Positions 42,042 through 43,022 of a DNA stretch of 64,000 nt are shown piece by piece. Under the pieces are notes generated by a model. It made no database searches. It had not been told where the DNA came from and saw only the letters and a program-made list of their open reading frames with translations. The stretch spans positions 30,382,001 through 30,446,000 of the forward strand of contig OZ249436.1 of NCBI GenBank assembly GCA_965235115.1, written 5' to 3'. Source of the stretch: Laetmonice hystrix (taxonomy: Eukaryota). Every line of letters starts with the position of its first letter. The stretch's first letter is position 1. The position numbers and the translations under genes were made by a program.

Positions 42042-42245
42042 GCGCCAGAACATCGGTCATCACCACCAGAGTTCGCATTGGGACACAGTGGTAACGCACA
42101 GGTTGACACAAAACACCCTATTCCTCACGGACAAGCGCATCATTAGACGTCTTAAGGTAAGTTTTTTTTTTTACAACTTTTGTTTGTTACAACTACTTAG
42201 AACTACAAGGGTATCACTATGCTAGGAATGAAAAAAGGGGAAAAC

Positions 42246-42833
42246 TTAGATAGTCCTAGGCGTACTGTCGGTATTCCATCCGTCAAAACGACCATGTTTG
42301 TTAGCGAGTATACGTAAATAGTTGTGCTTCAAGCGGAGAGCAATTAGAGAGGCCATGAACAGTGCTACGACCCCTGAACCGCTACCTAACACAAGCAGTA
42401 GCAGGGGGTTGTTCGTCTCCTTTGGGGGTAGTAAACCCCTGTATGAAGGGCGTGGATCATCCTCCGTTATGTTGTCCTTATGTTGACTTGGCAGGGTTGA
42501 ATTGGTGGTACATCTGTCTTGAAGAATCCTTTCCATGACTGTATGTGGCAATGCATCCCATAACATACACGAGAGGGGATTGCCTCGTAAATCAATTTCT
42601 TTAAACTGTAAGGCGTAATGGCGAAGAGGTGGTCGTGTTATCCTGTTGCTTCTTAAATCCAATCGAAGAGAATCGTCAGTTCTTGCAAATTGTGGATACG
42701 TTGAAAGGTTTTTGTCGGCACACATTACCAACCCCGAAGGTTTGCATTGGCATGGAGCACACGTATAACCAGTCTCGGTTTCAGCGTTTAGCATTATTAC
42801 AAGTGATAACAGTACACATGTAGCCATGTACAT
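42246..42833 (-). CDS. Small type-I membrane protein with LRRNT cap, 1-2 leucine-rich repeats, stalk and TM helix (Polinton cargo)
   Basis: Signal peptide; CAPCQC......C..KNLSTYP (LRRNT); LRLDLRSNRIT; IDLRGNPLSC; TM LLLLVLGSGSGVVALFMASLIAL; short cytoplasmic tail. Confidence 0.85.
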   Translation of the reverse strand: MYMATCVLLSLVIMLNAETETGYTCAPCQCKPSGLVMCADKNLSTYPQFARTDDSLRLDLRSNRITRPPLRHYALQFKEIDLRGNPLSCMLWDALPHTVMERILQDRCTTNSTLPSQHKDNITEDDPRPSYRGLLPPKETNNPLLLLVLGSGSGVVALFMASLIALRLKHNYLRILANKHGRFDGWNTDSTPRTI

Positions 42834-43022
42834 GATTGTTTTAGCTTAACTGTATTCTTATAAATATTGATATAAATCTTGATATGGTTGACCTAACTAA
42901 CGAGACTCTCGTTGACCTAACCAAGATCTGTCTCGGAGAATGTTTCTCTGTGAACTGAATGGAAGTACCATTATGTCTAGGATATATACTGAGAGAATAT
43001 ATAAACATTTTTATTCTTACAG

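Follow-up and report, generated by a model that had tools for sequence, protein, structure and literature searches.

A minimal capped-LRR membrane protein family carried by Polinton-type elements of Laetmonice hystrix, predicted to nest antisense in a polB leader intron in one element family

The stretch of Laetmonice hystrix DNA analyzed here (the window, 64,000 nucleotides) contains a complete Polinton and, on the minus strand of that element, an intact mini-LRR gene. As judged from sequence comparison, this gene is a member of a conserved, element-borne family and not a one-off capture, and its relatives are under purifying selection, with dN/dS values of about 0.13 to 0.3. Its position antisense to the polymerase gene, inside an intron, holds as a prediction and appears incidental to one element family; because it is confined to that family, the nesting matters less than the protein. 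The features to which the text refers are listed below by window position and strand.

37851 to 56726 (no strand): complete family A Polinton/Maverick, adintovirus-like, 18.9 kb, with AGTAGT ends and a 6-bp TSD
37851 to 38425 (+): left TIR, 575 nt, 99% complementary to 56152 to 56726
41856 to 41932 (-): closest poly(A) hexamers on the strand of the LRR gene (ATTAAA at 41932, AATAAA at 41861), presumed to serve its mRNA and situated past the polB leader exon and TATA box
42027 to 42033 (+): TATAAAA, presumed TATA box of the predicted polB transcript
42057 to 42156 (+): predicted non-coding leader exon without ATG, its start placed about 30 nt after the TATA box
42157 to 43022 (+): predicted leader intron, 866 nt, GT..AG, ending directly before the polB ATG at 43023
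42246 to 42833 (-): gene for the mini-LRR type I membrane protein, 195 aa, intronless, intact ORF
42249 to 42335 (-): cytoplasmic tail, 29 aa, without TIR or Pro-rich region
42336 to 42398 (-): transmembrane segment, about residues 146 to 166; best 19-residue Kyte-Doolittle mean 2.15; AlphaFold helix 153 to 184
42510 to 42767 (-): ectodomain, residues 23 to 108, with a four-Cys N-cap (C25, C28, C30, C38), LRR strands, and a GNPLxC C-cap with C89 and C108
42780 to 42833 (-): signal peptide, about residues 1 to 18, a hydrophobic N-terminal helix (AlphaFold, hydropathy)
42855 to 42877 (no strand): AT-rich, TATA-like tract, candidate LRR promoter, 22 to 44 nt upstream of the LRR ATG
43023 to 44790 (+): seven predicted phase-0 coding exons (43023-43088, 43431-43502, 43653-43799, 43931-44005, 44139-44267, 44408-44509, 44641-44790)
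45172 to 49431 (+): body of the protein-primed PolB (PF03175, E 3.4e-46); similarity to the PolB of other families begins at this acceptor
49969 to 55846 (-): virion/integration module, sharing its strand with the LRR gene and also containing a basic 123-aa ORF and two small ORFs
49969 to 51282 (-): putative major capsid protein, labeled from size, position, and conservation among elements
51743 to 52165 (-): putative penton, labeled from size, position, and conservation among elements
52146 to 53252 (-): rve integrase with chromodomain (Pfam)
53997 to 54746 (-): A32-like ATPase (Pfam)
54833 to 55846 (-): RNA ligase RLIG1, C12orf29-type, full-length (PF17720, E 3e-102)
56152 to 56726 (-): right TIR, partner of the left TIR at 37851 to 38425

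The architecture originally predicted for the 195-aa protein, with signal peptide, LRRNT, minimal LRR, cap, stalk, transmembrane segment, and a short tail without TIR, was borne out by folding and hydropathy. AlphaFold, run with an alignment of 21 sequences, predicted an LRR fold with pLDDT values of 89 to 96 over residues 31 to 110, a signal helix at residues 2 to 17, a disordered stalk, and a membrane helix at residues 153 to 184; an earlier model from 5 sequences was weaker, with a mean of 67. The signal peptide and the single transmembrane segment, both indicated by hydropathy and by the AlphaFold helices, are those of a type I membrane protein, and in the ectodomain a four-Cys LRRNT is followed by strands of the pattern LxxLxLxxNxI/L. 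Residues C38, C89, and C108 are present in all 21 aligned proteins and C25, C28, and C30 in 20 of them, the exception starting downstream. Three N-glycosylation sequons were found in the protein, and its Pfam scan returned LRR_1 alone, at an E value of 0.0099, below the cut-off. Taken as modeled, this type I membrane protein displays a reduced capped-LRR module of about 86 residues with six Cys, an unusually compact scaffold of its kind that could serve as a small, foldable bait for a host receptor.

The original prediction had likened this architecture to GPIb-beta/GPIX or to a truncated Toll- or VLR-like ectodomain. The likeness stands, GPIb-beta being among the nearest look-alikes; membership in GPIb-beta/GPIX or VLR does not, the C-cap having two Cys and not four. 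A Foldseek search of the PDB gave no row at E 0.001, its top row being GPIb-beta (3rez; E 4.2e-3, 26% identity, rmsd 4.3 over 94 columns), and VIA-align placed TLR3, Slitrk1, fibromodulin, VLR, Slit, and GPIb-beta in a tie at Z 7.7 to 7.1 (for GPIb-beta 3rfe, Z 7.1 and rmsd 2.5 with 82 aligned residues). Given this tie among many LRR proteins and the empty Foldseek result at that threshold, the fold names no partner, and the GPIb-beta match shows fold, not orthology. Profile searches of PDB sequences retrieved LGR4, GARP, TLR3, Toll, and VLR chains (E 1e-7 to 1e-12), the ESM Atlas assigned the window protein to GPIb-beta/GPIX and LRRNT clusters at 0.93 and a long-tailed relative to LRRC25-like clusters at 0.94, and a fold search of BFVD yielded nothing at E <= 0.001.

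A standard LRRCT contains four Cys in the consensus NPWxCxC...C...C, whereas here C89 and C108 are the sole Cys beyond the last LRR strand, and this pair alone is conserved across the 21 aligned proteins. Assignment to GPIb-beta/GPIX was rejected on this ground and on the missing Pfam match to GP1BB_C (PF28456) in seven family members; the window protein is likewise without an LRRNT match in Pfam, and no named GPIb protein occurred among 20 phmmer matches. Like the window protein, GPIb-beta and GPIX (3rez, 3rfe, 8wfs) are small type I membrane proteins with one Cys-capped LRR module, but the ectodomain measures about 86 aa here as opposed to 111 to 119 aa in their solved chains, and the mini-LRR gene, unlike theirs, rides on a mobile element of an invertebrate-type genome. 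Assignment to Toll/TLR was rejected as well, given the 29-aa tail and the lack of a TIR match in the seven members. VLRs and truncated Toll ectodomains share the LRRNT, LRR, and cap module; in contrast to them, the window protein has far fewer repeats, a single-pass transmembrane segment, no TIR, and no sign of diversifying arrays.

The element around the gene is a Polinton, as the original prediction had assumed for its polymerase transcript. Its TIRs have the (AGT)2 ends and its flanks the 6-bp TSD that define Polintons/Mavericks according to the accessible part of PMC8097293, and protein-primed PolB (PF03175), rve integrase (PF00665), and packaging ATPase (PF04665) were all detected over the Pfam cut-offs. 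The integrase ends in a C-terminal chromodomain (PF00385, E 4.3e-9, residues 325 to 364), which is given as an adintovirus criterion in the available portion of bioRxiv 2024.03.25.586562. The Pfam scan gave no match for the OTU-like domain of the adintovirus PolB N-terminus and, among 12 element ORFs, none for an adenain-like protease, of which a divergent gene may be present. The putative capsid and penton ORFs (437 and 140 aa) are conserved across element families and had no capsid match in Pfam. GC3 is 0.43 for the LRR gene, 0.51 for polB and capsid, and 0.39 for RLIG1. A second full family A copy (G000:C1, about 3.42 to 3.44 Mb) is 99.6% identical, has its own, different TSD, and carries an identical LRR ORF, from which it follows that family A was mobile recently; by this sequence comparison, the window Polinton is a recent insertion. 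A third copy, on contig C7, is truncated at the end of polB and so offers no version of the intron free of the LRR gene.

Several further observations concern this element. RLIG1 is common to families A, B, and D at 71 to 79% identity (also at L017, L020, L030, L143, and L146), and a literature search for RLIG1 in Polintons returned nothing specific. Two plus-strand ORFs of 98 aa (38804 to 39100) and 235 aa (39180 to 39887) recur as a pair in three Polinton families with 30 to 43% identity; they had no Pfam match over the cut-off. The motif TCAAGGTCA, which matches the ERR/SF-1/FTZ-F1 nuclear-receptor site, occurs 14 times in the element, 12 times in the TIR ends (37887 to 37971 and 56606 to 56690) and also at 41808 and 56049, with one copy lying 220 nt 5' of the polB TATA box; in the whole window, 17 copies were observed versus 0.74 expected. 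Two AGGTCA half-sites are located 56 to 85 nt upstream of the LRR ATG. A tRNA-like stretch at 40197 to 40300 (-), in which a B-box-like motif precedes a T run and of which copies with 74 to 85% identity exist elsewhere in the genome, may represent a SINE or else a gene for a Pol III RNA; it was called by neither ARAGORN nor Rfam, and the tRNA and Rfam scans gave nothing above curated thresholds.

A search of the animal's own assembly (627 Mb, 35 contigs) recovered 12 matches to the mini-LRR protein, all 12 in Polinton-type surroundings and distributed over four element kinds, so that the gene is indeed present in related Polintons. Eight of the reading frames are whole and four broken. Family A accounts for two matches, both in the nested antisense arrangement. 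The six family B matches (38 to 47% identity) invariably lie directly 3' of a Polinton ATPase gene; in the three copies for which the downstream region was fetched, the LRR gene has the same direction as polB and is located upstream of it, ending about 1.6 to 1.8 kb before the leader donor in the two copies measured. Family C consists of one match in a non-autonomous element of 6.6 kb that has AGTAGT at its ends and is flanked by a 6-bp TSD (L023:8519 to L024:5141; G000:C8, about 27.066 to 27.072 Mb), where the LRR gene, with its own TATA and AATAAA, stands beside a gene for a 489-aa fusion of a C2H2 zinc finger with an A32-like ATPase; the element showed no polB, integrase, or major capsid match, and six near-identical relatives that were fetched are without the LRR gene. 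As to the ATPase fusion itself, besides these six copies the genome contains dozens of ATPase matches with similar long frames. Family D comprises three fragmentary matches, one beside RLIG1, PC4, and CARD-PC4 genes and the other two 93 to 97% identical to it in DNA; the Polinton status of family D is the weakest of the four kinds, no element ends having been found. The PC4 and CARD-PC4 fusion genes (L030:2583-3582) adjoin RLIG1 and the mini-LRR gene, and, read from the sequence, a CARD in a Polinton-type element suggests a decoy of death or immune signaling.

The family gained no member from a profile scan of 60 fetched stretches of 3 to 10 kb and of the window, which took in two other complete-looking Polinton families; being present in some Polinton families and absent from others, the gene is accessory-like. 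Outside this genome, the module is shared by 16 of 20 phmmer matches, 15 of these 16 with a transmembrane segment; four long proteins were dropped as unrelated, two by sequence and two by name and length. None of the 16 homologues is named, and all come from ENA or Logan assemblies. The short tail described for the window protein proved not to be general, as family B (151 to 158 aa, Pro-rich) and 11 of the 16 outside homologues (87 to 270 aa, mostly Pro-rich) have long tails, with 10 to 22% Pro and often the motif PPRPP. Tails of only 7 to 55 aa are found in families A, C, and D and in four outside homologues, which identifies the ectodomain plus transmembrane segment as the conserved unit. 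Word-indexed protein searches detected no relatives, the family surfacing only in exhaustive phmmer, and an IMG/VR scan gave one pattern match and no relative. Metagenome matches (80 of 113 kept) reached at most 36 bits with the family profile, and the one examined was a multi-repeat LRR without Cys cap; these were set aside as generic LRRs.

Selection was assessed by the Nei-Gojobori method. Between subfamilies B1 and B2, dN/dS is 0.13 to 0.15 for the ectodomain, 0.22 to 0.25 for the tail, and 0.22 to 0.23 overall, at dS values of 0.6 to 0.9; within B2 it is 0.17, between C and D 0.21 for the ectodomain and 0.30 for all positions, and within B1 0.65 on only 24 differences. The dN/dS comparison proposed for related Polintons thus indicates purifying selection, and with homologues under such selection the ORF can be regarded as a real gene. 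For the window gene against family B, dS is saturated, and the ectodomain pS of 0.87 to 0.92 and pN of 0.35 to 0.37 fit constraint and yield no ratio; the two family A copies, being identical, provide no dN/dS.

The host gene from which the original prediction had the protein captured was not found among 14 host LRRNT loci, which scored at most 34 bits with a profile built on outside homologues only and applied exon by exon to the top candidates; the element copies scored 58 to 104 bits with this profile. In an ectodomain tree, the element rows stand apart from the host rows (99/97), with poor resolution inside and long branches, and the tree is not taken to indicate a donor or a sequence of events. 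A recent capture from the host is not supported for this diverged family spread over four element kinds; since the fold is metazoan-like, the source is likely to be an animal LRR gene captured long ago.

The reading that we favor, tentatively and by analogy, is that the mini-LRR protein is a viral accessory surface glycoprotein acting as a non-signaling partner or decoy of host receptors. The gene would be accessory to an integrating, adenovirus-like virus (Polinton/adintovirus) and presumably has an AT-rich promoter of its own, reading along the virion-gene strand; its glycosylated single-pass product would display one tiny capped LRR module at the surface or on endomembranes of cells in which the element is active. 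In the least certain step, the ectodomain would bind a host LRR receptor, a ligand, or an immune-cell receptor without signaling and thereby dampen detection of the infected cell. In relatives, the Pro-rich tail may contribute trafficking or the recruitment of adaptors; in family A such a tail would be dispensable. Support for an accessory gene comes from the fold and topology, the six conserved Cys, the dN/dS values, the Polinton contexts of all 12 matches, the patchy presence, and the retention of the LRR gene by the 6.6-kb non-autonomous element. The four broken frames among the 12 matches and the ratio of 0.65 within B1 count against it.

The decoy step is modeled on the action of ASFV I329L on TLRs. 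I329L is described, in the available parts of PMC3066390 and PMC9965916, as a glycosylated viral surface protein that inhibits TLR signaling and whose ectodomain is proposed to form a non-signaling heterodimer with TLR3. The likeness is one of functional analogy only: I329L has 329 aa and belongs to a large nucleocytoplasmic virus, as opposed to a 195-aa Polinton protein, and the Foldseek comparison of the two was not significant (E 0.16, rmsd 26.6). Adenovirus E3 offers a second parallel. Many E3 proteins are membrane proteins, built on Ig-like or CR1 domains instead of LRRs, and the E3 unit shares the orientation of the late unit. E3 is a set of immune-evasion accessory genes that has its own promoter and sits within a different transcription unit of a virus with protein-primed PolB (PMC7851563, accessible part), and the mini-LRR gene resembles it as an accessory gene predicted to be embedded in another transcription unit of such a virus. 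The original prediction considered a membrane protein notable in a virus presumed non-enveloped; in this lineage it is not unusual in itself, given E3 and the signal- and transmembrane-containing fusogen of nematode Mavericks, as far as the available text of PMC7851563 and bioRxiv 2022.07.12.499685 goes. Known Polinton/adintovirus cargo includes PLA2X, GasderminX, cupiennin-like, Oncoid, and Bcl2/IAP genes (PMC8502044, in its section 3.2), and that of nematode Mavericks MFUS-1, WASP, and KRMA, some of the cargo containing introns (bioRxiv 2022.07.12.499685, in the portion at hand); like these genes, the mini-LRR gene is cargo limited to certain lineages and placed in the variable region 5' of polB. 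LRR membrane cargo is not named in the accessible portions of PMC8502044, bioRxiv 2024.03.25.586562, bioRxiv 2023.10.06.561300, or PMC8097293. A literature search on Polintons, Mavericks, adintoviruses, and viral LRR decoys, covering openly accessible article text, returned no description of the family, which is apparently undescribed. We advance more guardedly the general proposition that animal Polintoviruses carry an old, undescribed family of minimal-LRR surface proteins, swapped between autonomous and satellite elements, that is an E3-equivalent antagonist of host receptors. If so, these elements would run productive infections under immune selection. Polintons as real animal viruses are still argued mainly from capsid genes, and a secreted-pathway surface protein kept under purifying selection across several element families is independent evidence of action on the host cell surface or immune system.

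An unlikely alternative is that the protein serves spread, the LRR module mediating cell-cell contact and the Pro-rich tail recruiting SH3, WW, or EVH1 proteins or regulators of actin so that virions pass from cell to cell or reach the germ line. The long, Pro-rich tails of family B and most outside homologues, the constraint on the tail between B1 and B2, and the presence of adhesion proteins with capped LRRs (Slit, Slitrk, LRRTM) among the fold matches agree with such a role, whereas the short tails of families A, C, and D and of four outside homologues do not; the window copy would then retain the adhesion half only. Still less probable is superinfection exclusion, in which the protein would bind or down-regulate the receptor by which related Polintoviruses, or another virus, enter and would thereby protect the cell harboring the element. 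Many Polinton families reside together in this genome (79 capsid-protein matches), and a non-autonomous satellite element keeps the LRR gene, but the six other near-identical satellite copies fetched do without it.

As regards gene arrangement, the TATA box at 42027, the donor at 42157, the acceptor at 43022 directly before the ATG, and the ORF wholly inside on the opposite strand were each verified in the sequence, the intron being a predicted one. No ATG occurs between the TATA box and the donor. The donor reads AAG/GTAAGT, with its GT at 42157, and the acceptor TTACAG/ATG, with its AG ending at 43022; the LRR ORF lies 89 nt from the former and 189 nt from the latter. With rough consensus weights not trained on this genome, the donor ranks first of 1,376 GTs on the element's plus strand, and the acceptor ranks 33rd of 1,006 AGs and best between 42157 and 43022. 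The leader of family B has the same design in all three copies fetched, with a non-coding exon, a GTAAGT donor, and an acceptor abutting the ATG, and its leader intron of 219 to 226 nt is empty; the family A intron minus the LRR ORF measures 278 nt. No DNA similarity between the A and B leader introns was detected by blastn.

The seven coding exons that follow are all open, have AG/GT borders, and encode an acidic N-terminal region of 247 aa; analogous short polB coding exons are conserved between B1 and B2. They lead to the acceptor at 45171, and the raw ORF upstream of it crosses a TTTA repeat tract. As the PolB similarity of other families begins at this acceptor and the raw ORF upstream is TTTA tract, PolB very probably takes its start from the spliced 5' end at 43023. 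We infer the junction at 45171 from these data; a dynamic-programming splice chain into the PolB frame was best or tied in three of three elements, but control frames came within 0.4 of its score, and the PolB frame thus did not stand out from them. Two contig sets over 41800 to 45400 contained no GT..AG joints; they behave as DNA and are thus mute on splicing and expression. The core genes of intact vertebrate Mavericks are without introns according to the accessible part of PMC8097293, with which the polB predicted here, having a leader exon and seven short coding exons, contrasts. The polB 5' region (43023 to 45172, +; also L018 2768-4575 and L019) is acidic with an NLS-like basic patch. 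A further strong acceptor lies at 44969; the exon behind it, read in phase 0, meets a stop within 15 codons, a route by which a short acidic protein may be made as an alternative.

The simplest reading, drawn from architecture and length only, is that in family A an intronless cassette landed inverted in a pre-existing non-coding polB leader intron of about 220 to 280 nt. Splicing would clear it from the polB mRNA, and the nesting would mark a tolerated insertion site. That antisense nesting is a conserved feature of the gene is contradicted by its restriction to family A, two of the 12 matches. There is little likelihood that the genes are not nested at all and that polB and the LRR gene lie head to head with a shared AT-rich promoter in 42834 to 43022, the upstream TATA box and donor being incidental; such an arrangement would be compatible with any function of the protein. 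It would account for TATAAAT on the plus strand at 42859 and 42871, 150 to 165 nt before the polB ATG, and the intron is a prediction only, yet it would leave unexplained the best donor in the element behind an ATG-free leader exon and the leader design shared with family B, and an unspliced leader would hold three upstream ATGs.

The insertion reading allows for contact between the two transcripts. Because the nearest minus-strand poly(A) hexamers are located beyond the leader exon and TATA box, the LRR mRNA may extend outside the intron although its ORF lies inside, and, as far as this layout indicates, the LRR and polB transcripts may overlap and interfere; the nesting might also switch polB off through its promoter. 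It is improbable that such a switch, shutting polB off late in infection by antisense transcription through its leader exon and TATA box, explains the arrangement: the position of the hexamers (41932, 41861) would suit it, but only family A has the arrangement, and family B keeps both genes without overlap. Equally improbable is that the element gains a membrane on exit with the LRR protein as receptor-binding spike, for although the family A gene is on the virion-gene strand and nematode Mavericks acquired a fusogen with signal peptide and transmembrane segment (bioRxiv 2022.07.12.499685, accessible part), the element is without a fusogen-sized ORF, two complete-looking Polinton families are without the LRR gene, and in family B the LRR and capsid genes are on opposite strands.

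Two minor observations concern neighboring and related sequence. To the right of the element, two related short ORFs (58971 to 59363 and 61716 to 62240, +), without Pfam match, are followed by sequence duplicated about 2.5 kb apart. At L127 (G000:C4, 34.555 to 34.565 Mb), a Polinton integrase-penton-capsid fragment is present in tandem, with about 3.3 kb per unit.
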